This document shows positions 2,226 through 41,959 of a stretch of 64,000 nucleotides of DNA, in pieces. A program made the translations under genes and the position numbers. The DNA lies in NCBI GenBank assembly GCA_964390635.1, contig CAYMIG010000006.1, positions 108,995-172,994 of the forward strand. The letters run 5' to 3'. Positions within the stretch are counted from its first letter, which is position 1; each line of letters opens with the position of its first letter. Source of the DNA: an uncultured Vampirovibrionales bacterium (GTDB lineage: Bacteria > Cyanobacteriota > Vampirovibrionia > Vampirovibrionales > Vampirovibrionaceae). The notes beneath the pieces were generated by a model that was not told where the DNA came from, did not search any database, and saw only the letters and a list, made by a program, of their open reading frames with translations.

Positions 2226-2909
2226 TTAGCCGGGTGGCGGCACCGGGGGCGTGGGCAAAAACGGGTTGAAGCCGGCGTTTTGGCCGGCAAGCCCGGGTCG
2301 CCGCGGGTTGAGCGGGTTCGCATTGAGTTGATCGGGACGGACGCCCTGGTGCAGTTGGCCGGGCGAAAGGCCCAGCGCGGCCAGCTGGCGATCGAAACGC
2401 TGCTTGTTCTGCATGGCCACCTGGGCCTGGCCCATCAGGCTGGCGGCCTGGGCGGCCACCGAGAGATCCTGCCCGGAGGCATCCGCCCCGGGGGCCAGCG
2501 CGGCGGCGCGCACCTGCATGTAGTTGCGCAGGCTCTGCGCCGGGTTGGCCGGGTCCAGTTCCGGGATCATGATGGGCACATGCCCGCCCACCGCAATGCC
2601 GTTGGCGTCGTATTCTATGTGGATGCCGCCCCCAAAGGCCCCGGCTGCCGAGGCATGGGCCTGCTCGTGGGCCATAATTTTGGCGAAGCTTTCCGCCTTG
2701 ATGCGATCCAGCTCGGCCCGGGGAATCAGGCCGGTTTGCAGGCCAATGCAGGCCAGGCAGCCTCCCCCGCCCTGCCCCCCGGAAAGCTGAACCATGGGTT
2801 GGGCCCCCTGCAAGGGGTCAACCGCATTGCCCGCGCCGGCGGAACCATACCCTGACGGGTTTGGGCGATTGGTATGCGGCATGGGACCGAGCGGATGTAC
2901 CCCGGACAT
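2226..2909 (-). CDS. Hypothetical protein with HExxH motif (possible minimal Zn-metallopeptidase) and Gly/Gln/Pro-rich low-complexity termini
   Basis: Motif AKIMAHEQAHASAAG. ATG at 2909 preceded by ggagga RBS (the GTG at 2915 directly abuts the RBS). Shares GGQGGGG and GFNPF motifs with the LysM paralogs transcribed divergently. Confidence 0.55.
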   Translation of the reverse strand: MSGVHPLGPMPHTNRPNPSGYGSAGAGNAVDPLQGAQPMVQLSGGQGGGGCLACIGLQTGLIPRAELDRIKAESFAKIMAHEQAHASAAGAFGGGIHIEYDANGIAVGGHVPIMIPELDPANPAQSLRNYMQVRAAALAPGADASGQDLSVAAQAASLMGQAQVAMQNKQRFDRQLAALGLSPGQLHQGVRPDQLNANPLNPRRPGLAGQNAGFNPFLPTPPVPPPG

Positions 2910-3151
2910 CCTCACTCCTCCAGATTCCGAAAAAGGCTATTAAAACGATAATGCGTGATGAGAACCAAGTAAATAAAAACATGGAAAACGCCCGTCTTGA
3001 CTGTATTACGGGCTGAAAATTTTTTGTCAAATTTCGATCGACGAATGATTGCAGATTGTAAATAAGGCATGTGGCCTACTGTTATGCTTTAAAAGAGGTA
3101 ATCTGGAAATAGTTGTTTATATTTCTATTTTTAATCCTGAGAAATCTCAGA

Positions 3152-3157
3152 TACAAT
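3152..3157 (+). promoter_or_regulatory. Candidate -10 element (tacaat) in the 250-bp AT-rich divergent intergenic region 2916-3165
   Basis: tacaat 18 nt upstream of the ATG at 3175; ttgact -35-like further upstream; region is ~30% GC against a ~64% background. Confidence 0.3.
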
Positions 3158-3174: not shown

Positions 3175-3855
3175 ATGAATGTTGAATTGACCGGGGGATA
3201 CGGGAAGCCGATGGTGGTCCAGTTAGACAGGCCGCAAGTTTTAGCGCCGCAACAATCGCAAAAAACCCTGCCTGCCAGGCTGATCTTTGCCGCGCAGCCC
3301 CAGGCGCCGGTCGATGTGCCGAAGGTTCAGAACGGCCCTAACGCCGACGTCTTCCAGTCCGCGGGAGATTCCTCCGAGGGTCAGTCCAAGGCGGCCCAGG
3401 CTTCCGATCGGCTGGCCGAACTGCTGACCACTTCCGAGGATCGCAAGGCCAATGCCGCGGCCTTCTTCCAGGCGGTCACCGGCAAGCTGCCGTTTCGCGT
3501 CAGTCTGGAGGCGCAGGCCGAAAAGCAGGCCGAGCTCCAGGCCCTGGCCGAGACGGTCAAACAGATGAACCCGCAACAAAAAGTGGCACTGATGCAGAAG
3601 CTGACCGGTACCGAGTCGCCCTACAGCAAGGTGGCCGAGACGGTGCTCATCAACCAGCAACTGCCCAATCTCAAAGACGTGGCGAACCTGTTCAAGCCCC
3701 AGGCCCAGCAAAAGTCGCTGGAGGGCTTGTCCGTCGCCATCCAAGGTGTGGGCCTTGGCCTGCTGTTACTGCCCATCCTGTGTCCGGCCTCCATCCTGTT
3801 CAGGCCGGAACTGCTGGGTCAGTTTGCCGCCGGTCTGGCCGTGATTTTACTCTGA
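3175..3855 (+). CDS. Hypothetical protein, Gln/Ala-rich with hydrophobic C-terminal segment (possible C-terminal membrane anchor)
   Basis: ORF 3166..3855 (TTG). Likely ATG at 3175 (MNVELTGG...). C-terminus LGLLLLPILCPASILF...LAVILL is hydrophobic. No recognised domain. Confidence 0.5.
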   Translation: MNVELTGGYGKPMVVQLDRPQVLAPQQSQKTLPARLIFAAQPQAPVDVPKVQNGPNADVFQSAGDSSEGQSKAAQASDRLAELLTTSEDRKANAAAFFQAVTGKLPFRVSLEAQAEKQAELQALAETVKQMNPQQKVALMQKLTGTESPYSKVAETVLINQQLPNLKDVANLFKPQAQQKSLEGLSVAIQGVGLGLLLLPILCPASILFRPELLGQFAAGLAVILL

Positions 3856-3914
3856 CCATTTGCCTGCCTATATATCCTAACTGCGACTGATAAGGTGATA
3901 ATTGCCTGCCCTAG

Positions 3915-3948
3915 CCCGGAGTCTGCCTGACTTCCGGGTTTTTATTTT
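3915..3948 (+). terminator. Rho-independent terminator after the 3175-3855 gene
   Basis: cccggag-N10-ttccggg hairpin followed by tttttatttt. Confidence 0.6.
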
Positions 3949-3987
3949 CTTCCGCGTCACAATCCCTTTACAATCGATCCCGGTCAG

Positions 3988-4030
3988 GCAATCCCTCACA
4001 ATAAATTGTTTTTATTTTTTTAGAGAGAGG
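3988..4030 (+). promoter_or_regulatory. Conserved AT-rich upstream element of LysM paralog 1 (gcaatccc-N11-tgtttttatttttttagagagagg)
   Basis: Near-identical element upstream of paralog 2 at 5009-5050 (gcaatccc-N10-tgtttttattttattagagagatat); ends 80 nt upstream of the ATG at 4110. Confidence 0.5.
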
Positions 4031-4109
4031 ATTTTAATCTACCCATTTTCTATCGCAGTTTGAATTTTCTTAGGCATCCCATTTTGCATTTGAGAGAGAA
4101 GGCGTTCGC

Positions 4110-4874
4110 ATGTCGTCCAATTCCGTGACAGTCCAATCCGGCGATACCATTTGGGGCCTGGTTGCTGCGCGCAATCCGGGGGCCAGTAACGCCGAGATTC
4201 AGAAAAAGACCCAGGCGGTTTTGGATGCCAATGGCGAAACCTGGGATTCGGCCAGAAGGATTCAGGTGGGTCGCGAGCTTGATTTGTCCGCCGCAGGCGG
4301 CGGCGCCCCGACCGGTGGCAAGACGGCCGCCACGGCCAAGACGGCCATCGTGGAGCCCAAGCCGGAGCCGGAACCCAAGGCGGAACAGCCCAAGGCTGAT
4401 AACCCGGCGCCCACGCCACAAAATACCGCGCCTGCGGCCCAGGGCGGCAACGATTTGCTGGCCCTGCTGGAGCAGTACATCCGCATGCAGCTGCAAACCG
4501 GCACCCTCGATCCGACCCTGCTGCTGTTGCTGGGCCTGGGAGGCCAAGGCGGTGGTGGATTTGGCGGCCTGTTTTCGGGCTTGTTTGGTCAAGGTGGCGG
4601 CCTGTTTGGCCAGGGTGGCGGTCTGTTTGGCCAGGGTGGCGGCACCAATCCGTTTGGCGGCGGCCTGGACGCCTACCTGCAAAGCATTGGTATCCTGGGT
4701 GGTGGCCTGAGCCCCACCACCAGCAAGGCCATCGGCCTGGCGGGAATCGACCCCCTGAATGCCCGCAGCCTGGCCGCGCAAACGGCCTCGTTCACCTTCG
4801 GTCTGGCCGGCGGAGACGTGTTACCTTTCGCCAACCCCAGCGTCATTCTGGGCAACCTGGGCATAACCGCTTAA
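4110..4874 (+). CDS. LysM-domain protein with Pro-rich linker, GLFG/FG glycine-rich repeats and a conserved C-terminal domain (paralog 1 of 3); no signal peptide
   Basis: N-terminal LysM-like segment VTVQSGDTIWGLVA...IQVGRELDL. Linker PKPEPEPK. Conserved helix APAAQGGNDLLALLEQYIRMQLQTGTLDP. Repeats GGLFSGLFGQGGGLFGQGGGLFGQGGG. C-terminal block ...AIGLAGIDPLNARSLAAQTASFTFGLAGGDVLPFANPSVILGNLGITA is ~90% identical to paralog 2. Confidence 0.85.
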   Translation: MSSNSVTVQSGDTIWGLVAARNPGASNAEIQKKTQAVLDANGETWDSARRIQVGRELDLSAAGGGAPTGGKTAATAKTAIVEPKPEPEPKAEQPKADNPAPTPQNTAPAAQGGNDLLALLEQYIRMQLQTGTLDPTLLLLLGLGGQGGGGFGGLFSGLFGQGGGLFGQGGGLFGQGGGTNPFGGGLDAYLQSIGILGGGLSPTTSKAIGLAGIDPLNARSLAAQTASFTFGLAGGDVLPFANPSVILGNLGITA

Positions 4875-5008
4875 TTGCTGACTTGGAGAGAACCCCGGTA
4901 GTGCAGGCCGGTTAAATAGGTCACTGACCGCATTCCGGTTTTTCCGCACCTTGGCGGATCCCTGAAAAGGCTGGCTAGCAACAATTTGTAATACTTGCAG
5001 AGGAAAAG

Positions 5009-5050
5009 GCAATCCCGTCTTACTGACTGTTTTTATTTTATTAGAGAGAT
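5009..5050 (+). promoter_or_regulatory. Conserved AT-rich upstream element of LysM paralog 2
   Basis: Matches 3988-4030. Ends 44 nt upstream of the ATG at 5094, so spacing to the start codon differs between paralogs. Confidence 0.5.
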
Positions 5051-5093
5051 ATATTCATTCTTCCCTATTCACTAGCAAGTAAGAGCGAGAGAG

Positions 5094-5921
5094 ATGTCTG
5101 CACCATCCCCAGGAACGTATACCGTTCAACCCGGCGATAGCTATTACCGGATTGCGCAACAATTGAACGCCAAGCCGGCGGATGTTGTGAAGGTAGTCGA
5201 GCAGCTGCAAGAGCAAAACGGCGGCAAGGGCCTGCATCCTGGCGATACCCTGACCATTACGCAGGATATGATTAACCTGCCCCCGGGCGCTGCGCCGATT
5301 ACCCCACCTTCCCAAGGGCTTCCCGGCGGAACGGCGGGGGGTACCGTGGGAGCCCCTGCGCCCGCACCAGCTCCGGCACCGGCCCCCGCGCCTGCACCTG
5401 CACCGGCTCCAGCGCCCGCACCGGCGGCGCCTACCCCGCAAAACACCGCGCCTGCGGCCCAGGGCGGCAACGATTTGCTTACCCTGCTGGAGCAGTACAT
5501 CCGCATGCAACTGCAAACCGGCACCCTCGATCCGTCTCTCTTGTATTTCCTGGGCCTGGGTGGCCAAGGGGGCGGCGGATTCGGCGGCCTGTTTGCCGGC
5601 CTGTTTGGCCAGGGCGGCGGTTTGTTCGGCCAGGGTGGTGGATTCGGCTTTAACCCCTTTGGCGGCGGCCTGTTTGGCCAAGGTGGCGGCACCAATCCGT
5701 TTGGCGGCGGCCTGGACGCCTATCTGCAAAGTATCGGCGTGTTGGGCGGCGGCTTGAATCCCACCACCACGCGTGCCATCGGCCTGGCGGGCATCGATCC
5801 GCTGAATGCCCGCAGCCTGGCCGCGCAAACGGCCTCGTTCACCTTCGGTCTGTCCGGCGGGGACGTGCTGCCCTTTGCCAACCCCAGCGTCATTCTGGGC
5901 AACCTGGGCATTACGGCCTAG
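5094..5921 (+). CDS. LysM-domain protein with (AP)11 dipeptide repeat, GLFG/FG repeats and conserved C-terminal domain (paralog 2 of 3); no signal peptide
   Basis: LysM-like YTVQPGDSYYRIAQQL...GLHPGDTLTI, then APAPAPAPAPAPAPAPAPAPAP. Conserved helix APAAQGGNDLLTLLEQYIRMQLQTGTLDP. FG repeats and the same C-terminal domain as paralog 1. Confidence 0.85.
   Translation: MSAPSPGTYTVQPGDSYYRIAQQLNAKPADVVKVVEQLQEQNGGKGLHPGDTLTITQDMINLPPGAAPITPPSQGLPGGTAGGTVGAPAPAPAPAPAPAPAPAPAPAPAPAAPTPQNTAPAAQGGNDLLTLLEQYIRMQLQTGTLDPSLLYFLGLGGQGGGGFGGLFAGLFGQGGGLFGQGGGFGFNPFGGGLFGQGGGTNPFGGGLDAYLQSIGVLGGGLNPTTTRAIGLAGIDPLNARSLAAQTASFTFGLSGGDVLPFANPSVILGNLGITA
5352..5430 (+). repeat. Coding microsatellite: about 13 consecutive GCN-CCN (Ala-Pro) codon pairs inside LysM paralog 2
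   Basis: gcccctgcgcccgcaccagctccggcaccggcc... direct dinucleotide-codon repeat; creates the poly-Pro shadow ORF 5144..5695(-). Confidence 0.8.
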
Positions 5922-6005
5922 GACTGCCTGCTTACTCCCATCCCTTCCCGGTAAAGCGTATTCCAATGCAGTGACTGGAAACCATGCATCCAGGAGTGAG
6001 TCACC

Positions 6006-6542
6006 ATGCCAACCATCATTCCGATTCAAAAGGGTGAAACCATCGAGTCGATGGTGCGCAAGGCGCGCCCCGACGCCTCTCCGGCTGAGTTCCAGCGCCT
6101 GGTGGCCCAGGTGCTGAGGGACAACAACCTGGAGGACAATGGTCCCGGCAGCAGCGCCTGGCGCATTCCCATCGGCAAACCCATTGATATGACCGCGGTT
6201 TATGGCGAACCCACCGCCACGCCGGTCAACCAGGCGCCCGCCGCGCAGGGTGGCGGGGATACCCTGGCCCTGTTGGAACAGTACCTGCGCTACCAGATTT
6301 TGTTACAGCAGCAGCAGTTGGCTTTTCAGCAAAATCCTTTTGGCCTCAACCTGGGGGGCTCTGGCTTTAATTCGCCCGGATTTTTCAATCCCTTCTTGGG
6401 CCAGGGCGGCTTTAATCCCAACGATCCCTTCGGTATTCTGGATGCCCGCCTGGGAACCCATGATATGACCGTGCGCGCAGCCATCCTGGCGGGTATCGAT
6501 CCGCTGGGGGCCCGTCAACTGGCGGCGGGGCTGTTGTTCTAG
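6006..6542 (+). CDS. LysM-like / FG-repeat protein, shorter third paralog lacking most of the C-terminal domain
   Basis: Degenerate LysM IPIQKGETIESMV...WRIPIGKPIDM. Conserved helix APAAQGGGDTLALLEQYLRYQ. FNPF/GG repeats. Ends with AILAGIDPLGARQLAAGLLF, matching AIGLAGIDPLNARSLAAQ of paralogs 1 and 2. No own AT-rich element, probably co-transcribed with paralog 2. Confidence 0.75.
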   Translation: MPTIIPIQKGETIESMVRKARPDASPAEFQRLVAQVLRDNNLEDNGPGSSAWRIPIGKPIDMTAVYGEPTATPVNQAPAAQGGGDTLALLEQYLRYQILLQQQQLAFQQNPFGLNLGGSGFNSPGFFNPFLGQGGFNPNDPFGILDARLGTHDMTVRAAILAGIDPLGARQLAAGLLF

Positions 6543-7130: not shown

Positions 7131-9323
7131 TTATCCGTGGTAGCGGTAGTTCTCGGCAAAGGTTTGCAGGGCTTGGGCATCTTGTACCCGGGTTTGCTCC
7201 CGCTGGGCGGTGGTTTTGTCCTGCAAATCCACCAGTCCCTGGGCCACCGCCTGGCTAACGAAGTCCCGGGCGACCTTGTAACCTGCCTCCCGCTTGAAGT
7301 CGTTCTTGAACGCCTCCGGCAGCGAGCTGCGCCGCAGCACGATGATGTGCTTGGGAATCAGCGCCCCGGCCAGCTTACCGGATTCCACCATGCGGCCCAT
7401 GGCCTGCTTGATGTCCTCTTCGCCCAGGCGGGGATCTTCGGTCACCGCCACCACCACCGATTTTTCGGTTTCCCGATCCGGGCGGTAGGGCACGGCCATG
7501 GCATCCAGCACCCGGGGCTCGGCGGTACGCACCGCCTTTTCAAACTCGCCGGGATCGCGCCGTTCGCCGCCCGAGTCCTTGATGAAGTTGCTCTCGCGGC
7601 CAATAATCTGCATGGGGCCCAGCACCAGGCTGCCAAAGTCGCCGGGCTTGGCGCCCGCCCGCAGCCGGGTTTGCCGGTTGCCCTGATCGCCCGTGTGGTA
7701 CCAGCCGTCCTTGTCGCTCAGGGAAACCAGCCCGTGCTCATCGCCCGTTTCGCCTTCGTCCAGCGTGCCGGCCACGTAACCGGGCGAGACACCCGGCGAG
7801 CGCACCAGGATTTCCCCTTCGCCGCTCATCTTGCTGGCGCCGTAAAAGGCATGGCGGGTATCGGTTTCAATCATCTTCACTTCCACGCCGGGCAGTTCGC
7901 TGCCTACAAAGCCGGGCTCGCCGGTCATGTTCAGCATGTTGATGCCGCCCTCCGAAGAGCCGTAGCCCTCCAGAATCTGCATATGCGGGTTGATGGCTTT
8001 CAGCGCGTCGTAGGTTTCCTTTTTCAGGGGGGCGCCGCCGCTGATGACCACCCGGATTTGCTGCAGCGCCTGGCGGGTTTGCGGGTGGCTGTTGGCGTGG
8101 GCCACCAGCTTTTCCAGGAAGATGGGCACGGACGGCAGCACCGTGACCTTGTAATCGCGAATGGTCTGGCTCACCTTGTCCAGATCGGCAATGGCGGCGC
8201 GCAGAGAAGGTAGCATCACCATTTGGGTGCCCCGGTAAATGCCGGTCAGTTGCACCGCCTTGCCGAAAATGTGGAACAGCGGCAGGCCCACCAGCATCAC
8301 GTCATCCGGCTTCAGGATGTTTTCCACGGCCTGGTTCAGCGAAGTGGCTGTAAACACCAGGTTCTGGTGGGTCAGGGCCACGCCCTTGGGGTTGCCGGAG
8401 GTGCCCGAAGTGAATATAACATCCGAAATGCTGTCGGGCTTGGGATTCAGGGCCATATCGCCCACAGAAAGCGGCTTCAGGCGTCGCATTTTGGATTTGT
8501 CCTCGGGCGTAATTAGCCGCAAGTTCTGGGGCAGGCGCTCAAACAGGGTGGCGAAATCCGATTTTGCCTGGGCCAGCAGCTCGGCGCGGTGTGCCTCGGT
8601 CACCGTCACCCCGGATTGCTGTAGCTTGTGCACGCCTTCTGCCACTTTTTCCCGCATGCTCTTGTCAAGTACCTTGTAAAGCAGCTTATGCAGGGGGTTT
8701 TTGGCTGGAAGCCCCTGGGCGTAACGTTCGGCCACGTTGCGTAGCAAGGGTTTTCTGAGGGACAGAATTTTTTGGAAGCCGTACATGGGCTTGAACAGGG
8801 AATCGCTGCCAAACACGTAGGCGTCGCTTTGGGTGCCGCCCACCATATGGGCCAGGTTGGCGATTTTGGTGTATTCATCCTGCATGGCCAGCAGGTTGAT
8901 GGGCAGCATGGTGGCCCCCACGGCCAGGCCGCCGTAATAGGTGCTCAGGTAATCCAGGGTGTTGGTTTCGGCCACGGCAATGCGCTTGCCGTCCAGGCCC
9001 ATCTTGCGGAAACCCGCCGCCGTGCGCTGGATTTTATCCAGCATCTGGGCGTAGGTAGTGTCATGATCCTTGCCGTCCGGGGAAAAATGGCGGCTGACCC
9101 GGAAGCCCACCCGGTTGCGGGTGGCCGGATCGGTGCCCAGGCTCACCAGCTTGTGCACCATGTTGAGTTCGGCGGGATACTGAAACGCCTTGCGCCCGCT
9201 AAAAAAGACGTCGGTCGCCGGGCCGTTCCTCAGGCTGGGCAAGCTGGCGGCAACCGGCGCCGGTTGCGGGCGCCTTGCCCCGAAACTAACGGCGGGACGG
9301 TTGGGCAGAAACGAAATATCCAT
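7131..9323 (-). CDS. AMP-dependent synthetase/ligase (long-chain fatty-acid-CoA ligase-like), ~730 aa
   Basis: AMP-binding motif IFTSGTSGNPKGV; large adenylate-forming enzyme architecture. Likely start MDISFLPNRP at 9323. ORF 7074..8213(+) is an antisense shadow. Confidence 0.8.
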   Translation of the reverse strand: MDISFLPNRPAVSFGARRPQPAPVAASLPSLRNGPATDVFFSGRKAFQYPAELNMVHKLVSLGTDPATRNRVGFRVSRHFSPDGKDHDTTYAQMLDKIQRTAAGFRKMGLDGKRIAVAETNTLDYLSTYYGGLAVGATMLPINLLAMQDEYTKIANLAHMVGGTQSDAYVFGSDSLFKPMYGFQKILSLRKPLLRNVAERYAQGLPAKNPLHKLLYKVLDKSMREKVAEGVHKLQQSGVTVTEAHRAELLAQAKSDFATLFERLPQNLRLITPEDKSKMRRLKPLSVGDMALNPKPDSISDVIFTSGTSGNPKGVALTHQNLVFTATSLNQAVENILKPDDVMLVGLPLFHIFGKAVQLTGIYRGTQMVMLPSLRAAIADLDKVSQTIRDYKVTVLPSVPIFLEKLVAHANSHPQTRQALQQIRVVISGGAPLKKETYDALKAINPHMQILEGYGSSEGGINMLNMTGEPGFVGSELPGVEVKMIETDTRHAFYGASKMSGEGEILVRSPGVSPGYVAGTLDEGETGDEHGLVSLSDKDGWYHTGDQGNRQTRLRAGAKPGDFGSLVLGPMQIIGRESNFIKDSGGERRDPGEFEKAVRTAEPRVLDAMAVPYRPDRETEKSVVVAVTEDPRLGEEDIKQAMGRMVESGKLAGALIPKHIIVLRRSSLPEAFKNDFKREAGYKVARDFVSQAVAQGLVDLQDKTTAQREQTRVQDAQALQTFAENYRYHG

Positions 9324-9569: not shown

Positions 9570-10727
9570 TTAATCACCATCCAGCTTGCGCTTGATTACA
9601 TAAATGGCCCCACCCACGGCAGCGGCCCCGCCCATGCCGATGCCCACTTTAATCATGATTTCTTGCAGGTGTTGCTGATCGGCCTGGTGTTGCAGGTAGC
9701 GGTAGACCGGATCCCGGTACAGGCTGGCGAAGGTATCGGCCATGCTGCGCAGCGCGGCGTCGTAGTCGCCCTGGTACAGGGTATAGGCCTGATCGTTGCG
9801 GCTTGCCTGGATGCCAGTGGCAAAATATTCCGCCAGCTGCCGGGTTGTCTCCTGTGGATTTTCCCGCATCGCCTGCTGAATTTTTTCGGCCTGGGCCTGC
9901 ACGTCGGCGTTGTTGTAATGGCCTCCCGAACGCTCAATCTGGGCGGCCAGATTCGCAAACATGTTGGGCCCCTGGGTCACTTCCAGCATATTGGGTTGGA
10001 TGTTGTAGTCGGTGTGGTGGATGATGATGGGCGTGCAGGTGGTGGTTTTGCCGTTGGAGGTGCACATCATCGAGATGGACGTCCAGTCGTGGCGGATGTT
10101 GGCGTGGTTTCCCCGCAACTCCCGGGCGTTCAGCAGGATGACCGCCCCGTCCCCCGCCGGGTTGAGCCGCTGGTTGATTTGCTGGGCCAACACCTGGGCG
10201 TTGCCGGCAATATCCGGGGCGATGACCACGTAGACGTTTCCCACGTAGCCGGCCTGGTGGATGACTTGCAGCTGCTGGTTGACGTAGTCGTGCGTTTCCC
10301 TTGACACCAGCGGGTTGTCCGCCGCCTCAATCACATACTGCCGGCTTCCCTCGGCGGGAATGGGAATGTCATCCGCCGAGTCGACCACGTGCACGTTAAT
10401 GTGCACATCCTCCGCCTGGACATTGAAATAGCCGTAGTTGGGGGCTTCCACCACCTGGGTGATGGGCGTTCCCTGGCTGATGGGCAGGCTGGCCGCGCTG
10501 GCGGCGGGTATGCCCCGTACTCCGCCAAACATGCTGACCAGGGCGAAGGCCGCCACGGCGGCCAACCGCAGGATGGGATTGGGCTTTTTCTTTTTGGGCC
10601 TGGCCGTGCTTAATTTGGCCTGGTCCAGGTTTTCGCCAAAGTAAACAAGCCGTGGCGATGCCGATGGCAGCCGCCCGGCAGCGGAATGAACGGCAGGCGC
10701 AATGCCTTGCCGCATGGCATATAGCAT
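9570..10727 (-). CDS. Hypothetical membrane-anchored exported protein (possibly TPM-domain-like) with C-terminal Gly-zipper TM segment
   Basis: ATG at 10727 preceded by aaggagag RBS. Internal hydrophobic segment ILRLAAVAAFALVSMFGG after a KKKK stretch; C-terminal IGMGGAAAVGGAIYVIKRK. Domain assignment uncertain. Confidence 0.55.
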   Translation of the reverse strand: MLYAMRQGIAPAVHSAAGRLPSASPRLVYFGENLDQAKLSTARPKKKKPNPILRLAAVAAFALVSMFGGVRGIPAASAASLPISQGTPITQVVEAPNYGYFNVQAEDVHINVHVVDSADDIPIPAEGSRQYVIEAADNPLVSRETHDYVNQQLQVIHQAGYVGNVYVVIAPDIAGNAQVLAQQINQRLNPAGDGAVILLNARELRGNHANIRHDWTSISMMCTSNGKTTTCTPIIIHHTDYNIQPNMLEVTQGPNMFANLAAQIERSGGHYNNADVQAQAEKIQQAMRENPQETTRQLAEYFATGIQASRNDQAYTLYQGDYDAALRSMADTFASLYRDPVYRYLQHQADQQHLQEIMIKVGIGMGGAAAVGGAIYVIKRKLDGD

Positions 10728-10981
10728 CCTTCTCTCCTTGTTTCCCCTCACGCAGAAAAAGTGTCCAAAGATATAAAAACCAGGATTTCGGTTTTTGTGC
10801 TAGTGACACTATCCCCTTTTGTCTGGCTGGCGCCTTGCTGCCAAAACCGGGGCGCCGGGGCGAAAAAACCGGTAGCCCATTGCTTTTAGGGATGCCGGCG
10901 CGGGGCATGCCCCGCAGTTCTGGGCGCGGCAAAACCCGTCCCGCGAAAAAACGCCGTCGGCCCAGCCCCCTTCATAGAGCC

Positions 10982-11062
10982 TGGGCGAGGTGGGACTTGA
11001 ACCCACACACATTGCTGTACTGGCTCCTAAGACCAGCGCGTCTACCATTTCGCCACTCGCCC
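10982..11062 (-). tRNA. tRNA-Leu (anticodon TAG), class II with long variable arm, no encoded CCA
   Basis: Reverse complement folds as acceptor gggcgag/ctcgccc, anticodon loop cttagga, T-arm gtggg-ttcaagt-cccac. Confidence 0.85.
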
Positions 11063-11151: not shown

Positions 11152-12288
11152 TCAATCCAGGTAGATTTTCTCCGGGCCGGGGGGGGCCAGATCGGCCAGC
11201 CGGGATTTGCGGGTCTTGGGGGTGACCGGGGTGGCGCCCAGCCGGTCAATCACCTTGGTGGCCAGGCGTTCCTCGTTCAACTCTTGCTGCAGCTTGCGGT
11301 TTTCGGCTTCTAAATCCTTGATTACCGCCTTCAGCCGGTTGACTTCTGACTCCTCCTCCCGCCGCTGGATGGCCCGGCGGTTCACTTCGCCGGCCAGGGC
11401 CTTGAGGGCGGTTTCCAGGGAGCTGTCCTCGGCGGCGGTAAAATTGATGCCCGCCTCCGGGGTGGCCCCGGCGTGCTTGCAATGCCGTTTGCGCACCTTG
11501 ATTAGCTGGGTGCTGCCCTTGCCGAAGTAATAAAATTCCCCGGGTTTCAACGCCTTGATGGCCTGGAAGGTGATGCCCGCCTCGTTGAGGAAGGGCTTGA
11601 TGGCTTTATAGTCCTGCTCGGAGGTAATCCCCCCGAACCAGAAGCGGTTGCACTGGCTGAGAATGTCCTTGTTCAGGCTGGCCGGTCGCTGGGTGGCCCA
11701 CAGGCTGTCGATGGCCCGCTTGCGGCCCCGCTTGGCGATTTTCTGCGAGGCCTGCACCGGGTCGATGCTGCGTTTCTTGCTGCGCTTGGTCGAGGTGGCG
11801 GCCATGCGCTGGGGCGCGTAAATTTGCGCCTCCTCCACCACCAGTCGCAGCTTGGTGCGGTACTTTTGCTCCGCCACGAACAGGGCGTCGGCAATCAGCC
11901 CGTACAGGTGTTGTTGCTCCTCGTCCAAAAACTCCGAGAGATCGAACACCGCCGACAGCCGGTTTTGCAGCATGGCTTCCACGTACAGGTCGATGGCCTC
12001 CTCTTCCATGGGCAGGCTGCCGTGCTCGCCGCCGATAATCATCATGGGGTAGCGGGCAGCCAGGGTGAAATGCTCCCCTTCTGGGTCGATGATGCACACC
12101 AGCCCCCCGGTTTCCAAGGTTTCTTCAATCAAAACCCCGGTTAAATAAGACTTTCCCATCCCGGATGAGGCCAGGATGGCGTCTCTCTCTCCTGTCGTGG
12201 CCCATGCGTCCAGGGGGATGCTGAAGTTCTTGCCGACCTCCAAGGCACGGGCGCCCGGCACCAGCCGGTTTTTGATGAAGCGGAACAT
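11152..12288 (-). CDS. HerA/DUF87-like P-loop ATPase with basic, coiled-coil C-terminal region
   Basis: Walker A ILASSGMGKSYLT, Walker B-like LVCIIDPEGE; KR-rich region and heptad-like C-terminus (EVNRLKAVIKDLEAENRKLQQELNEE). Confidence 0.6.
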   Translation of the reverse strand: MFRFIKNRLVPGARALEVGKNFSIPLDAWATTGERDAILASSGMGKSYLTGVLIEETLETGGLVCIIDPEGEHFTLAARYPMMIIGGEHGSLPMEEEAIDLYVEAMLQNRLSAVFDLSEFLDEEQQHLYGLIADALFVAEQKYRTKLRLVVEEAQIYAPQRMAATSTKRSKKRSIDPVQASQKIAKRGRKRAIDSLWATQRPASLNKDILSQCNRFWFGGITSEQDYKAIKPFLNEAGITFQAIKALKPGEFYYFGKGSTQLIKVRKRHCKHAGATPEAGINFTAAEDSSLETALKALAGEVNRRAIQRREEESEVNRLKAVIKDLEAENRKLQQELNEERLATKVIDRLGATPVTPKTRKSRLADLAPPGPEKIYLD

Positions 12289-17289: not shown

Positions 17290-18168
17290 TCAGGAGGAGC
17301 TGCGGGTTTTGACCGGGATTTTTCGGGGGAGCTTGTGCGCGTTGGGATCCCGCACCGGGTACTTGCCGCCCCGGTGGGGCAGAAAGTCTTCCACCACAAA
17401 CTTCAGGCTGCGGGGGAATTTTTCCAGCACCGGGAAATCCCGGTCCAGGGTGCGGCCCTGCTTGTGGGTGCCCAGCAGCGAGGCGAAGATTTCCCCTTGC
17501 AGGTCGCGGCTATCCAGGGCTTCCAGGGGGGTACACCAGGCTTCCGAGAGCTTCAGGCGGTCGGCATCTGACAGCCGGGCCAGATCCTCGCGGTAAGCCT
17601 GCACGAAAGCCTCCTCGTAAGAGACCTTACGGTACAGGTGGTCGATGGCATGGCTCACCTCTTCGGCCAGCGTGCTGTCTACGGGCGGCGCCGGGTGGCG
17701 CTCCCCGGTATAGGGGTTTTTGTAGTACTCGGCCACGATGATGTACTTGGTCTCCGGGCTTTGCGGTGGGGTATAGAACAGCCCGACCTCAACCTGGAAG
17801 GTATCCGGTGCGGGCGTGGCGGGCTTTCCATTGGCGCCGCGCACCACGATGCGGGGCGGGTTTCGGGAAGGCACCACGGTTTCCACCGTTTCCGCGCAAA
17901 AGAACCGGTAGCCGTTCTCTTTCAGCGTGCGCAGCTCTTTGGGGCTGAAGGTTTCCGACAGCACCCGGGCCACCTGCTTGCGGAAACCTTCCGAGACGTC
18001 GCCCCGGGTTTCCAGGAGGGCCAGGGTGTCGAAGGTTTGGCGGCTGAATTGATCGCCCGGCAAGGCTCCGAACCGGCATGGGGGGTGGGCCGCTTCCAGG
18101 GTAAGGGCTGGTGTGGCGGGGATGCGGGTCAAAAACGCGTTTGCCCGCAGCGATTCCAGGAGCCTCAT
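17290..18168 (-). CDS. Hypothetical protein (292 aa), no recognised domain
   Basis: Long ORF with good coding composition between the GGDEF gene and the deaminase gene. Confidence 0.45.
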   Translation of the reverse strand: MRLLESLRANAFLTRIPATPALTLEAAHPPCRFGALPGDQFSRQTFDTLALLETRGDVSEGFRKQVARVLSETFSPKELRTLKENGYRFFCAETVETVVPSRNPPRIVVRGANGKPATPAPDTFQVEVGLFYTPPQSPETKYIIVAEYYKNPYTGERHPAPPVDSTLAEEVSHAIDHLYRKVSYEEAFVQAYREDLARLSDADRLKLSEAWCTPLEALDSRDLQGEIFASLLGTHKQGRTLDRDFPVLEKFPRSLKFVVEDFLPHRGGKYPVRDPNAHKLPRKIPVKTRSSS

Positions 18169-40069: not shown

Positions 40070-41029
40070 TTATGGTTTCAACCAGTGTAACGTCTCGTTG
40101 TAGATGGCCTCCCAGTCGATGCCGTACTCCTTGAACAGCAGGCCGGGATCCCCGCTTTGCCCGAAGCGGTCCTGGGTGCCCAGGCGACGCACCGGGGTGG
40201 GGTGATGCTGGCTGAGTTCCTCGCAGACGGCGCCGCCCAGGCCGGCAATGACCTGGTGGCTTTCGGCGGTGATGACTTTGCCGGTTTTGCGGGCGCTGGC
40301 CACAAGCGTTTCGGTGTCGAACGGCTTGATGAAGACCACGTTTAGCACTTCGGCGTTGATGCCATGGTCTTTTTGCAGGCGCTCGGCGGCCAGCAGGGCA
40401 TGGTAAACGGTTTCGCCGGTACCCACCAGGGTGATGTCCGCACCCTCGCGCTCCACCCGAATCTTGCCGGGCTCCAGGCGGTAGCTTTCGTCATGGATGA
40501 TGGGGCAGTTGGGGCGCACCAGCCGAATGTAGACCGGCCCCACGTATTCCGCGGCCCAGCGCACCACGCGGTCGGTTTCCACCGCATCCGAGGGCACCAC
40601 CACGGTCATGCCGGGAATCACCCGCATCAGGGCGATGTCTTCGATGCTCTGGTGGCTGGCCCCGTCCTCGCCCAGGCTAAGGCCGCTGTGGGTGGGGGCG
40701 ATTTTCACGTTCAGGTTGCTGTAGCACACCGTGTTGCGAATCTGGTCCCAGCCCTTGCCGGCGGCAAACAGGGCAAAGGTGCTGCAAAACGGGATTTTTC
40801 CGGTGGTGGACAAGCCGGCGGCGGTATTAATCAGGTCTTGCTCGGAAATGCCCTGGTTAAAGAACCGCTCGGGGAACTTGTCGGCGAACATCTTGGTTTG
40901 GGTGGAGCAGGCCAGATCCGCATCCAGCACCACGATATCGGGGTTTACGGCGCCCAGGGCGGCCAGGGTTTCCCCGTATTGGTTCCGCAGGGCTTTCTTT
41001 TCCGGTTTTTCAAGGTTGATGGTGGCCAT
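40070..41029 (-). CDS. Transketolase, C-terminal (pyrimidine-binding) subunit of a split transketolase
   Basis: MATINLEKPEKKALRNQYGETLAALG...; transketolase pyrimidine-binding and C-terminal domains. Confidence 0.9.
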   Translation of the reverse strand: MATINLEKPEKKALRNQYGETLAALGAVNPDIVVLDADLACSTQTKMFADKFPERFFNQGISEQDLINTAAGLSTTGKIPFCSTFALFAAGKGWDQIRNTVCYSNLNVKIAPTHSGLSLGEDGASHQSIEDIALMRVIPGMTVVVPSDAVETDRVVRWAAEYVGPVYIRLVRPNCPIIHDESYRLEPGKIRVEREGADITLVGTGETVYHALLAAERLQKDHGINAEVLNVVFIKPFDTETLVASARKTGKVITAESHQVIAGLGGAVCEELSQHHPTPVRRLGTQDRFGQSGDPGLLFKEYGIDWEAIYNETLHWLKP

Positions 41030-41047
41030 AATGTCTACCTCAAAGTC

Positions 41048-41959
41048 TTACAACTGGGCTTCCAGCTCGGCGTGGGCGGCCACCAGTTCGCTGTGGGCCA
41101 TTTTGTACTGCTCTTCGTTGGGGGCCTTGCCGTGCCAGCCGGCCTGGTTTTCCATAAAGCTGACCCCCTTGCCCTTCACCGTGTTGGCGATGATGGCGGT
41201 GGGGCGATCGGTGGTTTCGGCATAGCGATCGGCCTGCTTCAGGGCCTCCTGGATTTGCGGGTAGTCGTGGCCGTCGATTTCAATCACGTTCCATTCGAAA
41301 GCCGCGAACTTGGGCCCCAGCTGACCCAGCCGCTTGATTTTCTCGGTATCCCCGTCGATTTGCAGGTGATTGCGATCCACGATGGCCGTCACCCGGCTGA
41401 CTTTATGGTGCGCGGCGCTCAGTACGGCTTCCCACACGTTGCCTTCCTGGCATTCCCCGTCGCCCATCAGCACAATCACGCGGGAGTTGATGCCGTTTAG
41501 CCGGTTGCCCAGCGCCATGCCTACCCCGCAGGAGAGCCCCTGGCCCAGCGAGCCGGTGGAAATGTCGCAGCCCTTGATGTAGCGCGACGCCGGGTGGCCC
41601 TGCAGGTTGGTGTGAATCTTGCGCAGGGTGCCCAATTCCTCCCAGGGAATGTAGCCGGCCTGCATGAGGGTGGCGTAATAGGCGGGCGCCCCGTGCCCCT
41701 TGGACATGATGAAGCGATCGCGCTCGGGCCACTGGTCGTTGGCGGGATCCCACTTCAGGTGGGCGAACCAGATGTTTACCAGCAGGTCGATGCAGGATAG
41801 CGAGCTGCCCGGGTGGCCGGATTGGGCCTGGTAAATCATGTCGATGATGTCGATCCGCAGCTTGGCGGCCAGCTTCTTCAGCTCAGGGATGTTCAGGCTG
41901 CAAGGGCCGGTGGTTTCGCGGGACTCGGATTGGGTGCCTTGGGAAGGTAAAGTCATCAT
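41048..41959 (-). CDS. Transketolase, N-terminal (TPP-binding) subunit
   Basis: SGHPGSSLS TPP motif, GDGECQEGNVWEA. Confidence 0.9.
   Translation of the reverse strand: MMTLPSQGTQSESRETTGPCSLNIPELKKLAAKLRIDIIDMIYQAQSGHPGSSLSCIDLLVNIWFAHLKWDPANDQWPERDRFIMSKGHGAPAYYATLMQAGYIPWEELGTLRKIHTNLQGHPASRYIKGCDISTGSLGQGLSCGVGMALGNRLNGINSRVIVLMGDGECQEGNVWEAVLSAAHHKVSRVTAIVDRNHLQIDGDTEKIKRLGQLGPKFAAFEWNVIEIDGHDYPQIQEALKQADRYAETTDRPTAIIANTVKGKGVSFMENQAGWHGKAPNEEQYKMAHSELVAAHAELEAQL

Follow-up and report, generated by a model that had tools for sequence, protein, structure and literature searches.

A tandem family of LysM proteins with disordered, Phe-studded tails and a candidate tail-anchored partner in Vampirovibrionales

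Results

We identified, in a 64 kb window of DNA (the whole stretch analyzed), three tandem genes encoding LysM proteins with charge-poor, Phe-studded, predicted disordered tails, preceded by a gene for a small, apparently tail-anchored protein, here called X. The best explanation of the data is that these genes form a lineage-restricted, co-regulated module confined to a sub-clade of the Vampirovibrionales, non-photosynthetic relatives of the cyanobacteria.

Table 1. Coordinates of genes, protein segments, and regulatory features in the window
Feature	Position	Strand	Evidence
Predicted zincin, SprA-related (PF12118), HEQAH	2226..2915	-	Pfam, motif
ATGTTTTTATTT copy of motif, upstream of zincin	2971-2982	-	
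Second conserved block upstream of X, GCTGAAAATTTTTTGTCAAA...ATTGCAGATTGTAAA	3012-3062	+	
TTGTTTATATTT motif upstream of X	3113..3124	+	
-10-like TACAAT near X motif	3152-3157	+	
Partner X, 214 aa	3211..3855	+	Homolog search, hydrophobicity, AF2
Conserved AACTGCGACTGATAAGGTGATAATTGCCTGCCCTA, 3' of X stop codon	3879-3913	+	
Intrinsic terminator hairpin and U-tract after AACTGCGACTGATAAGGTGATAATTGCCTGCCCTA	3914-3948	+	
TTGTTTTTATTT motif upstream of paralog 1	4006..4017	+	
Paralog 1, long type, 254 aa	4110..4874	+	ORF call, Pfam, alignment, AF2
Paralog 1 LysM head	aa 4-60 = 4119-4289	+	
Paralog 1 linker rich in Pro/Lys/Glu	between LysM head and helix	+	
Paralog 1 amphipathic helix	aa 114-135 = 4449-4514	+	
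Paralog 1 GLFG/Gly tract	aa 137-185 = 4518-4664	+	
Paralog 1 C-terminal motifs GGLDAYL, LAGIDPLNARSLA, FTFGLAGGDVLPFANPSVILGNLGITA	aa 186-254 = 4665-4871	+	
CTGTTTTTATTT copy of motif, upstream of paralog 2, then TTAGAGAGA	5027..5038	+	
Paralog 2, long type, 275 aa	5094..5921	+	ORF call, Pfam, alignment, dN/dS
Paralog 2 (AP)12 linker	5352-5423	+	
Paralog 2 helix	5469-5534	+	
Paralog 2 GLFG/FGFNPFG tract	5538-5711	+	
Paralog 2 C-terminal block, 93% identical to paralog 1	5712-5918	+	
Paralog 3, short type, 178 aa, divergent LysM head	6006..6542	+	ORF call, alignment
Paralog 3 helix	6255-6317	+	
Paralog 3 tract rich in NPF/DPF	6333-6437	+	
AMP-binding, acyl-CoA-synthetase-like enzyme	7131..9323	-	Synteny, motif

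Alignment of the three paralogs revealed a common four-part plan of LysM head, Pro/Ala linker, amphipathic helix, and a G/F/Q/N tail that closes with conserved motifs. The first-pass annotation had described three tandem paralogs of modular design; ORF calls and alignment confirm the genes, on the plus strand, and the design is real and conserved across the family. The helix block that it recognized, APAAQGG(N/G)D(L/T)L(A/T)LLEQY(I/L)R(M/Y)Q, is common to all three proteins, and the near-identity that it noted between the C termini of paralogs 1 and 2 amounts to 64 of the last 69 residues. Paralog 3, said to keep only the first C-terminal segment, indeed ends directly after LAGIDPLGARQLAAGLLF and lacks the terminal FxFGL...FANPxVILGNLG block, while the Ala-Pro run reported as (AP)11 is in fact (AP)12. 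A tentative likeness of ...VILGNLG to encapsulin cargo peptides was dropped, and the window contains no shell gene. No start codon is available between the start of each paralog and the preceding in-frame stop, which excludes a hidden N-terminal extension. Kyte–Doolittle profiles (19-residue windows) detected no signal peptide or transmembrane segment in paralogs 1 to 3: the top mean was 1.0-1.3, inside the Gly/Leu tract, and the N-terminal maximum was at most 0.7. Start codons and hydrophobicity thus agree with the earlier observation that an N-terminal signal peptide is absent.

Both strands of this region carry long ORFs, as would fit a reading in which the ORFs are artifacts of GC-rich low-complexity DNA, or in which the real genes are the antisense ORFs at 4050-4781 and 5055-6029. 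This reading is virtually impossible, being already refuted by protein-level homologs in at least six lineages (GC 41-61%), by the confident LysM fold described below, and by a dN/dS of 0.085 at dS 0.50 in the plus frame (C-terminal halves, paralog 1 versus 2). In addition, GA-rich ribosome-binding regions, terminators, and conserved promoters all point along the plus strand. The Gly/FG tract alone gave a dN/dS of 0.07 in the same comparison. The C-terminal half of paralogs 1 and 2 is therefore under strong purifying selection, and because of this selection we conclude that the low-complexity tail is functional.

The head was modeled by AF2 as strand-helix-helix-helix-strand (residues 1-60, pLDDT ~90), and the LysM beta-alpha-alpha-beta fold of about 45-60 residues is present in the family N-domain. 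The N-domain profile matched the canonical LysM profile (95.4% probability, E 2e-8) and returned LysM proteins from PDB sequences, with an algal chitinase LysM as best match, while the full-length profile gave no meaningful match to PDB sequences. The best structural matches were P2 gpX, pyocin PA0627, Algoriphagus eCIS 7aeb_M, and Streptomyces CIS 9gtp. The N-terminal LysM fold that had been assigned by eye, and for which structure prediction had been proposed as a check, is therefore supported by AF2, profile–profile comparison, PDB profile search, and structural matches alike. Pfam scores were mixed: against a gathering score of 20.9 bits for LysM (PF01476), paralog 2 scored 26.1 and paralog 1 14.1, paralog 3 gave no match, and 2 of 19 family members matched at E <= 0.01. 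The signature GDT(I/L)W loop and conserved Asn are kept in the family, whose proteins carry one LysM, rarely two. We conclude that the N-domain is a divergent LysM subtype with a longer second helix.

Outside the head, pLDDT fell below 60 except in the helix at residues 116-130. Paralogs 1 and 2 each contain three LFGQGGG copies, with six and eight FG dipeptides, respectively, and the fraction of charged residues in their tails is 0.04-0.10. Across the tails of 19 family members this fraction is 0.02-0.14 compared to a background of 0.25, Phe accounts for 4-12% of residues, and Gly, Gln, and Asn together are high. The tail composition thus bears out an earlier comparison with cohesive FG-type low-complexity domains, being charge-poor and enriched in Phe, Gly, and Gln/Asn. 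It had also been proposed to check whether homologs always pair LysM with GLFG; they do not, and GLFGQGGG is limited to paralogs 1 and 2 of the window. The conserved property of the family is a low-charge, Phe-studded, disordered tail rather than exact GLFG repeats. No Cys occurs in 4163 family residues (background 1.07%), which may reflect export, as is typical of extracellular proteins, or equally well the low-complexity composition. Isoelectric points lie between 4 and 9.6 in the family as a whole and between 4.5 and 5.0 in the three window paralogs.

Members of this family are very rare: 1.84 billion representative proteins, searched exhaustively by HMM, yielded ~12 relatives, and about a dozen 50%-identity clusters were found among 15 billion proteins, none from a cultured organism and every one unannotated, unnamed, or labeled "hypothetical protein." Homologous tandem sets occur in at least five lineages besides the window, and the LysM-tail genes invariably form tandem long-plus-short sets of two to four paralogs (the window and loci L001, L002, L003, and L014). 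All family loci with readable flanks are syntenic with the window; the locus is chromosomal, and the order ArsC, DnaB ... L25, AMP-binding is kept across lineages. The window DnaB shares 74% identity with the DnaB of Vampirovibrio chlorellavorus, in which we found no family match, and the loci anchored on DnaB in this species and in two further Vampirovibrionales lack the cluster. Searches of Pfam, NCBIfam, and PHROGs gave only weak LysM matches (marginal for PHROGs), and at E <= 0.01 Pfam reported nothing but LysM in the 19 members, save one spurious CCDC14 match. These results uphold the view that no annotated family has this combination of domains; a search for a match to any characterized family, RTX, XVIPCD, and phage families included, likewise gave none. 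The architecture was not described in the literature that we found on Vampirovibrio LysM proteins, bacterial GLFG plus LysM proteins, or signal-less Gly-rich LysM proteins. Scans of genome and metagenome contigs returned only unrelated LysM proteins, from a Bacteroidales contig and an actinobacterial-looking contig (L006 and L012). A TerD match to paralog 2 was a chance result of a word-index search that was swamped by low-complexity candidates and otherwise returned only paralog 1.

X lies directly upstream of the LysM set in the window, L001, L002, L003, and L016, and precedes it in every locus having upstream sequence. A search of 5.8 billion clusters yielded only five homologs, none away from LysM sets; X is a second new protein family beside the LysM-tail family. 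Its N terminus is disordered and bears a "P..F.A ... GP..DVF" motif, its middle is helical, and a pair of hydrophobic helices (GVGLGLLLLPILCPASILFRPELLGQFAAGLAVILL) lies at its C terminus. X looks tail-anchored in the membrane with a cytoplasmic body; its bulk would be cytoplasmic because it has no signal peptide. The AMP-binding gene is a syntenic neighbor in four lineages, and the N-terminal extension of the enzyme shares the bipartite motif of X (NRPAVSFGA...NGPATDVFFSG), suggesting a functional link to the module. The zincin gene is transcribed divergently from X and encodes a protein with Gly-rich ends, a GFNPF motif, and no signal peptide.

X, the LysM genes, and the zincin gene share a promoter-associated motif. 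TTGTTTTTATTT occurs 4 times in the window compared to 0.18 expected, once upstream of each of X, paralog 1, paralog 2, and the zincin, and is placed likewise in other lineages with GC contents from 41 to 61%. Upstream of paralog 1 it forms part of a composite, GGCAAT-N14-TTGTTTTTATTT-N4-AGAGAGAG. Between X and paralog 1, ATTGCCTG (3901-3908) is an inverted repeat of CAGGCAAT (3985-3992). An Rfam search of the locus (E <= 5) found no family, and sigma-54, sigma-28, and NtcA-type sites were set aside as identities of the upstream motifs after a poor fit by eye.

Discussion

Concerning the LysM ligand, self-association, cellular location, and role of X, we tentatively infer a self-associating scaffold, similar to that of SafA, which is docked by LysM and assembled on X where membrane and wall meet. 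X would be a small protein fixed in the cytoplasmic membrane via its C-terminal hydrophobic tail, and the LysM head would be the docking unit, its ligand a GlcNAc-containing glycan or, in the manner of SafA and baseplate proteins, a protein partner. The amphipathic helix and a GIDPxxAR motif could provide for co-assembly of long and short forms, the long forms adding their terminal, beta-like motif, and the charge-poor, Phe-studded G/Q/N tail could make many weak Phe–Phe contacts, through which the set would form a gel- or matrix-like layer tethered via X. Candidate clients would be X itself and the AMP-binding enzyme, by FG/DVF-type N-terminal peptides, and the zincin, by an internal NPF motif. 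LysM proteins without a signal peptide have cytoplasmic precedents in SafA, CIS baseplate LysM proteins, and Kbp. Against such a scaffold, most characterized LysM domains act outside the cytoplasm; at 50-60 residues the FG-like tracts are short, and they differ in composition by lineage, with few Phe motifs in L003 members; the zincin adjoins the module in the window and L001 alone and is absent from L002 and L003; and AF2 modeled X poorly (mean pLDDT 52), so its topology is a reading of hydrophobicity only. The "xFG ... DVF" peptides occur on X and the neighboring AMP-binding enzyme in four lineages, and a bolder version of the scaffold, which we consider improbable, would make it a bacterial analogue of the FG-nucleoporin phase: an X-tethered Phe-Gly gel recruiting enzymes by these N-terminal peptides, and hence, in Vampirovibrionales, a membraneless compartment that is lineage-specific and addressed by sequence.

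It is also conceivable, if somewhat unlikely, that the proteins leave the cell by non-classical export, with the conserved C-terminal block as signal or X as a holin-like or dedicated export factor, and the zincin possibly opening the wall. Outside, the LysM head would act on the cell's own peptidoglycan or on an algal or fungal chitin-like wall, the tail serving as an adhesive or protective gel. LysM mostly acts on extracytoplasmic GlcNAc polymers, and the GDT(I/L)W and Asn positions are kept here; the algal chitinase match, the absence of Cys, the conserved C terminus, the membrane-active hydrophobic helices of X, and the shared promoter motif of the predicted metalloprotease point the same way. 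So does the biology of a cultured relative, V. chlorellavorus, which preys on Chlorella as an epibiont and possesses a type IV secretion system (PMC4451040). However, the family gave no match in V. chlorellavorus, and secretion-system genes, which the first-pass annotation had proposed to look for near homologs, were found neither in the window nor in any related locus. Short forms are conserved though they lack the terminal block, X (214 aa, terminal anchor) is unlike a typical holin, L002 and L003 have no zincin, and the RTX motif is absent. Pfam, which presumably contains an XVIPCD model, gave no match to this domain of type IV effectors in the 19 members (E <= 0.01).

The earlier analogy with type I secretion substrates, as Gly-rich repeat proteins with an uncleaved C-terminal signal, fared worse and is now very unlikely. 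It draws on the Gly-rich tracts, the missing N-terminal signal, the lack of Cys, the conserved C terminus, and the acidity of the window paralogs, but the nonapeptide pattern GG.G.D is absent from all three window paralogs (1 occurrence in 19 family members), the Gly tracts are not kept across the family, and the isoelectric points of the family spread well beyond the acidic range. A cognate ABC transporter and membrane-fusion protein were found neither in the window nor in L001-L005 or L014, and TolC is not near any locus. Scarcely credible is a derivation from a phage tail or contractile injection system, of which the proteins would be components or remnants, with LysM as a P2 gpX-like baseplate "glue": beyond the structural matches of the head, sheath, tube, baseplate, and other phage genes are absent from the window and related loci, PHROGs matches are marginal, the tail has no tube-initiator fold by AF2, and the locus is chromosomal and syntenic.

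Few condensate- or gel-forming scaffolds are so far known in bacteria. If the scaffold proposed above is correct, the module would be a compact bacterial system comprising a docking head, an FG-like tail, a membrane tether, and its own promoter signature, and its literal GLFG repeats would open nucleoporin-type cohesion to study in a module of four genes. If the proteins are instead exported, they would point to an unrecognized secretion route, and to a glue by which relatives of the algal predator Vampirovibrio bind walls or prey. In both cases, two new protein families (LysM-tail and X) and a conserved cis-regulatory signature come from a poorly known uncultured lineage, with rarity and the lack of a cultured host as the practical limit.

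Among known systems, Ecp6, AtlA, and NlpC/P60 LysM proteins share the LysM fold and signature residues with the family. In secreted LysM effectors and wall hydrolases a signal peptide is present, usually along with a catalytic domain or several LysM repeats, whereas the family has neither signal peptide nor catalytic domain. RTX substrates resemble it in lacking an N-terminal signal and Cys and in having a Gly-rich region and a conserved C terminus, but the family is without the GGxGxD nonapeptide, ABC/MFP neighbors, and a consistently acidic isoelectric point. Baseplate LysM proteins of phage tails and CIS are the closest structural matches to the N-domain; they are synthesized and assembled in the cytoplasm and act as protein–protein modules, not wall binders. 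They consist of LysM alone or with a tube-initiator domain, in tail or CIS clusters, neither of which applies to the family.

In SafA, LysM lies at the N terminus and the C30 region is disordered and self-interacting; the full-length form recruits a shorter isoform, and LysM makes both protein and peptidoglycan contacts (bioRxiv 10.64898/2026.02.03.703564). Like this Bacillus subtilis inner spore-coat hub (SipL and SpoVID are looser parallels), the family has an extreme N-terminal LysM, no signal peptide, a linker followed by a largely disordered C-terminal region, and longer and shorter forms with a common C-terminal part; self-interaction, known for SafA, and co-assembly are proposed for the family. 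There is no sequence similarity beyond LysM, and the SafA chain in the PDB aligned by sequence over no more than the first ~22 LysM residues (E 0.029). The family tail is Cys-free, charge-poor, and Phe/Gly/Gln/Asn-rich, its partner would be X, novel and apparently tail-anchored, in place of SpoIVA/SpoVID, and its short form has a gene of its own, with LysM retained and only the terminal block missing, whereas C30 is an internal-start isoform without LysM. The 64 kb window contains no sporulation genes, and spore formation is not known in Vampirovibrionales, so the SafA parallel is architectural only.

The likeness to GLFG domains of the Nup98/Nup100/Nup116 class is one of composition, without homology. 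The family is bacterial and LysM-headed, its repeat sequence is not kept between lineages, and its tracts have ~50-60 residues with 3-8 FG dipeptides, compared to hundreds of residues in nucleoporins. Shared with nucleoporins are the literal (G)LFGQGGG of paralogs 1 and 2 and charge-depleted tails with Phe "stickers" between Gly/Gln/Asn spacers, the composition that makes GLFG domains cohesive.

Three tandem genes, two of them mosaics, share one modular plan

The three LysM-headed genes of the window (paralogs 1 and 2, the long type, and paralog 3, the short type) occupy exactly the plus-strand coordinates assigned in the first-pass annotation. Each ORF starts at the first start codon past an in-frame stop, leaving no room for a hidden upstream signal peptide, and no segment is hydrophobic enough to be a signal peptide, as the annotation had stated, or a transmembrane helix. 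Aligning the paralogs reproduced its modular plan, in the order N-terminal domain, Pro/Ala-rich linker, helix block, Gly/Phe tract and C-terminal block; the Ala-Pro run, given there as (AP)11, was counted as (AP)12. All three share the block APAAQGG(N/G)D(L/T)L(A/T)LLEQY(I/L)R(M/Y)Q. Three LFGQGGG units are present in each of paralogs 1 and 2, which are identical at 64 of their final 69 residues, and paralog 3 ends past LAGIDPLGARQLAAGLLF.

Between paralogs 1 and 2, the region from residue 100 to the end gave a dS of 0.50, a dN of 0.042 and a dN/dS of 0.085 (about 94% residue identity from codon ~100 on), whereas synonymous sites in the N-terminal halves (LysM heads plus linkers) have reached saturation (dS > 2; 18/60 residues identical). 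We conclude from this difference in dS that the two genes are mosaics whose 3' halves have a more recent common ancestor, which implies past recombination or gene conversion confined to those halves. The Gly/FG tract alone has a dN/dS of 0.07, and the low-complexity part is, judged by sequence, also under purifying selection. Long antisense ORFs (4050-4781 and 5055-6029) were rejected as genes and regarded as by-products of composition, given the dN/dS of the plus-strand paralogs. The L25 gene (6539-7015, minus strand) converges on paralog 3 with a 4-nt overlap at the stop codons, and its product has a C-terminal extension rich in Lys/Ala/Pro/Glu.

Coordinates of the LysM locus and its conserved elements (window positions unless another locus is named)
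Feature	Locus	Position	Strand	Description
Paralog 1	window	4110-4874	+	ORF, 254 aa
Paralog 2	window	5094-5921	+	ORF, 275 aa
Paralog 3	window	6006-6542	+	ORF, 178 aa
X	window	3211-3855	+	214 aa
TTGTTTTTATTT	window	2971-2982	-	upstream of SprA-related zincin
TTGTTTTTATTT	window	3113-3124		upstream of X
TTGTTTTTATTT	window	4006-4017		upstream of paralog 1
TTGTTTTTATTT	window	5027-5038		upstream of paralog 2
TTGTTTTTATTT	L001	9032-9042, 9912-9922		
TTGTTTTTATTT	L002	7620-7630, 8589-8599		
TTGTTTTTATTT	L003	2845-2855, 3823-3833		
TTGTTTTTATTT	L013, L016	intergenic regions		
Post-X conserved region	window	3879-3992		
Post-X conserved region	L001	9784-9902		
Post-X conserved region	L002	8441-8580		
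Post-X conserved region	L003	3715-3816		
Post-X conserved region	L016	628-750		
Bipartite peptide	window	3211-3370		X N-terminus
Bipartite peptide	window	9180-9323	-	AMP-binding enzyme N-terminus

The family joins a divergent LysM head to a charge-poor tail predicted to be disordered

The Pfam LysM model scored 26.1 bits on paralog 2 (the sole paralog above threshold) and 14.1 bits on paralog 1, did not match paralog 3, and at E <= 0.01 recognized 2 of the 19 family members. AF2, supplied with a 13-sequence family alignment, modeled residues 1-60 at a pLDDT of ~90 as strand-helix-helix-(short helix)-strand, a LysM fold. Profile-profile comparison of 16 family N-domains with canonical LysM repeats returned 95.4% probability (E 2e-8), and the N-domain profile retrieved LysM chains from PDB sequences. 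The LysM nature of the N-terminal domain, for which the first-pass annotation had named structure prediction of ~60 residues as a check, is thus upheld. Based on the alignment, we conclude that the head is a divergent LysM subtype whose second helix is ~8 residues longer than the canonical one; in structure the head comes closest to the baseplate LysM proteins found in contractile injection systems. The subtype is not restricted to this family, since P0014, an unrelated 843-aa database protein lacking a signal peptide, has two LysM domains of the long-helix type (...GASNAEIQNHVDEIARLNKI...), in addition to repeats of high charge and a globular region at its C-terminus.

Past residue 60, pLDDT is below 60 save in a conserved amphipathic helix (116-130, about 73). 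The tails of the 19 members are rich in Gly, Gln, Asn, Pro and Ala, contain 4-12% Phe, and have a charged-residue fraction of 0.02-0.14 (versus 0.25 in 14 housekeeping proteins of the window); Cys is absent from the family's 4163 residues (background 1.07%). This charge-poor, Phe-containing composition bears out the FG-like, cohesive type of tail that had been proposed. GLFG repeats as such are present in paralogs 1 and 2 but are confined to them: in other lineages the tails are instead NPFG/DPF-rich, Gln-rich or GL/GM-rich. Conserved across the family are the helix L..L(L/I)EQ(Y/F)L..Q, GGLD(A/S)FL, (L)AGI(D/N)P..AR.LA and, usually, an NPF(G) motif; long forms also conserve (G/S)NF.F.L.GG..LPFANP.(V/I)IL.NL.

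The family is rare and its module appears vertically inherited

An exhaustive HMMER search with the three-paralog profile, covering 1.84 billion representatives (15 billion proteins), yielded 20 matches at E <= 0.001. True family members (155-325 aa) account for about a dozen of these, the remainder being ordinary multi-LysM proteins or chance matches, and no database match bears a name beyond 'hypothetical protein', in keeping with the earlier suggestion of an undescribed family.

The genes form tandem sets at every locus except L016. Where X, the partner protein encoded upstream, is present, it is followed by long, long and short members in the window; long and short in L001; long and short-like in L003, L004 and L005; long, short, short and a Gln-rich member without LysM in L002; and a single member in L016. 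L013 has two members, and L014 and L015 have four. The set is flanked by ArsC-DnaB and L25/AMP-binding genes in the window, L001 and L002; L014 and L015 keep the L25/AMP-binding flank, their contigs beginning just upstream of the set. These shared flanks argue that the module was inherited vertically and is not a mobile element.

In X, a disordered N-terminus is followed by a helical core bearing the motif MNPQQKVELMQKLTGPESPYSK, with a hydrophobic pair at the C-terminus; the protein matches nothing in Pfam, NCBIfam or PHROG. A profile search of 5.8 billion clusters found only 5 homologs, 4 on contigs that also carry family members and the fifth (P0147) on a 1.7 kb contig.

DnaB of the window shares 74% identity with its counterpart in Vampirovibrio chlorellavorus, a species that itself gave no family match and has no cluster beside DnaB. 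The other named best matches of the window are Vampirovibrio, Vampirovibrionales or Melainabacteria MAGs, bar three labeled Oculatellaceae, Coleofasciculaceae and 'Cyanobacteria bacterium'. Given these Vampirovibrio-type matches and the absence of photosynthesis genes from the window, the 'Oculatellaceae cyanobacterium' label of GCA_036702885.1 is probably a misassignment. The NCBI labels of L005 (GCA_036702885.1, DATNQC010000413.1) and of the DnaB matches P0027 and P0052 are 'Oculatellaceae cyanobacterium' and 'Coleofasciculaceae cyanobacterium'. MAGs so labeled carry the module and/or a DnaB whose identity to that of the window (~72-75%) is on a par with that of Vampirovibrio DnaB, and are probably Vampirovibrionales under a wrong taxon name.

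A conserved control signature marks X and the LysM genes

With one mismatch allowed, the 12-nt TTGTTTTTATTT occurs 4 times in the 64 kb window (0.18 expected), always at the LysM locus. Copies are also found ahead of X and of the first LysM gene in L001, L002, L003 and L016 and ahead of the LysM gene in L013, in lineages ranging from 41% to 61% GC. The first LysM gene is preceded by GGCAAT-N13/14-TTGTTTTTATTT-N4-6-(T)AGAGAG, and at X the element lies ~33 nt upstream of a TACAAT/TAGAAT -10-like box. TTGTTTTTATTT is probably an activator site or UP-like element defining a small regulon.

Past the X stop codon lies a near-invariant ~35-nt sequence ending in ATTGCCTGCCCT, then an intrinsic terminator; variation in its stem is compensatory. 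ATTGCC and a GGCAAT partner arm 70-110 nt downstream form a conserved inverted repeat around the terminator. Because both arms are invariant, the sequences do not distinguish an RNA stem from a pair of protein-binding sites; the element, which has no Rfam match, could work either in RNA, as a 3'-UTR element or attenuator, or as paired sites bound by protein. We conclude from these layouts that X, the LysM genes and, in two lineages, the zincin (a predicted SprA-related metalloprotease, PF12118; 2226-2915, minus strand) are separate transcription units with a common, strongly conserved control signature.

A Vampirovibrionales MAG without a LysM cluster (GCA_016712355.1; L011, 11938-12905) encodes a 260-aa protein, lacking a signal peptide, whose EF-hand-like head is followed by a low-complexity middle rich in G/S/A and by a Gln-rich helix that ends in GVTDP. 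Its gene adjoins a TadE-like gene and has the layout GGCAAT...TGTTTTTATTT...GA-rich upstream, as LysM genes do. The protein may be an analogous 'head + cohesive tail' product under the same regulator, so that this design and promoter may be broader in the order than the LysM family.

A bipartite N-terminal peptide, [KR]P.xF[GA] followed 10-30 residues on by P..D[VIL]F, is common to X and the AMP-binding enzyme (7131-9323, minus strand), which are unrelated in other respects. It is found on X in four lineages and on the enzyme in the window, L001, L002 and L014; outside the window, its occurrences are in L001, L002, L003 and L014. The peptide may serve as a targeting or docking signal specific to the lineage; being FG/F-containing and disordered, the peptides could act as docking 'stickers' for the tail phase or as ligands of the LysM head. 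Weaker look-alikes occur at the N-termini of window 17290-18168 and 9570-10751 (both minus strand), L002 7109-7480 and L001 6435-7406. Elsewhere in the window, a 378-aa HerA/DUF87-type ATPase with weak VirB4/TraC-like matches (11152-12288, minus strand) adjoins a tRNA-Leu gene (10982-11062), with no partner genes found for it, and transketolase (40070-41959, minus strand) is split into N- and C-terminal half genes (41048-41959 and 40070-41029).

Discussion

We tentatively favor a reading in which these proteins self-associate into a LysM-docked scaffold built on X at the interface of membrane and wall, given that X looks tail-anchored with a cytoplasmic body. Cohesion would come from the charge-poor, Phe-rich tails, and long and short forms would co-assemble through the common helix and GIDP motifs. 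In contractile injection systems, assembly of the baseplate LysM proteins takes place in the cytoplasm, so LysM can there be a purely protein-binding module.

The main rival, which we consider somewhat less likely, is that the proteins leave the cell by non-classical export and then bind its own wall or that of a host or prey. The usually extracytoplasmic role of LysM, the lack of any Cys and the conserved C-terminus all speak for export, as does the predatory habit of the cultured relative (PMC4451040). No secretion machinery, phage genes or contractile injection genes lie beside the module in the window or the related loci read. The resemblance to type I secretion substrates raised in the first-pass annotation fails the defining tests, since that machinery is missing there and the RTX motif, as had been noted, is absent from paralogs 1-3.

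For the scaffold on X, the closest architectural precedent is SafA, in which an N-terminal LysM without a signal peptide precedes a disordered self-interacting region, the shorter form is recruited by the longer one, and the LysM makes both protein-protein and peptidoglycan contacts (bioRxiv 10.64898/2026.02.03.703564). The LysM-tail family is new as a family, but both of the things it brings together, the domain and the type of disordered scaffold, are known.
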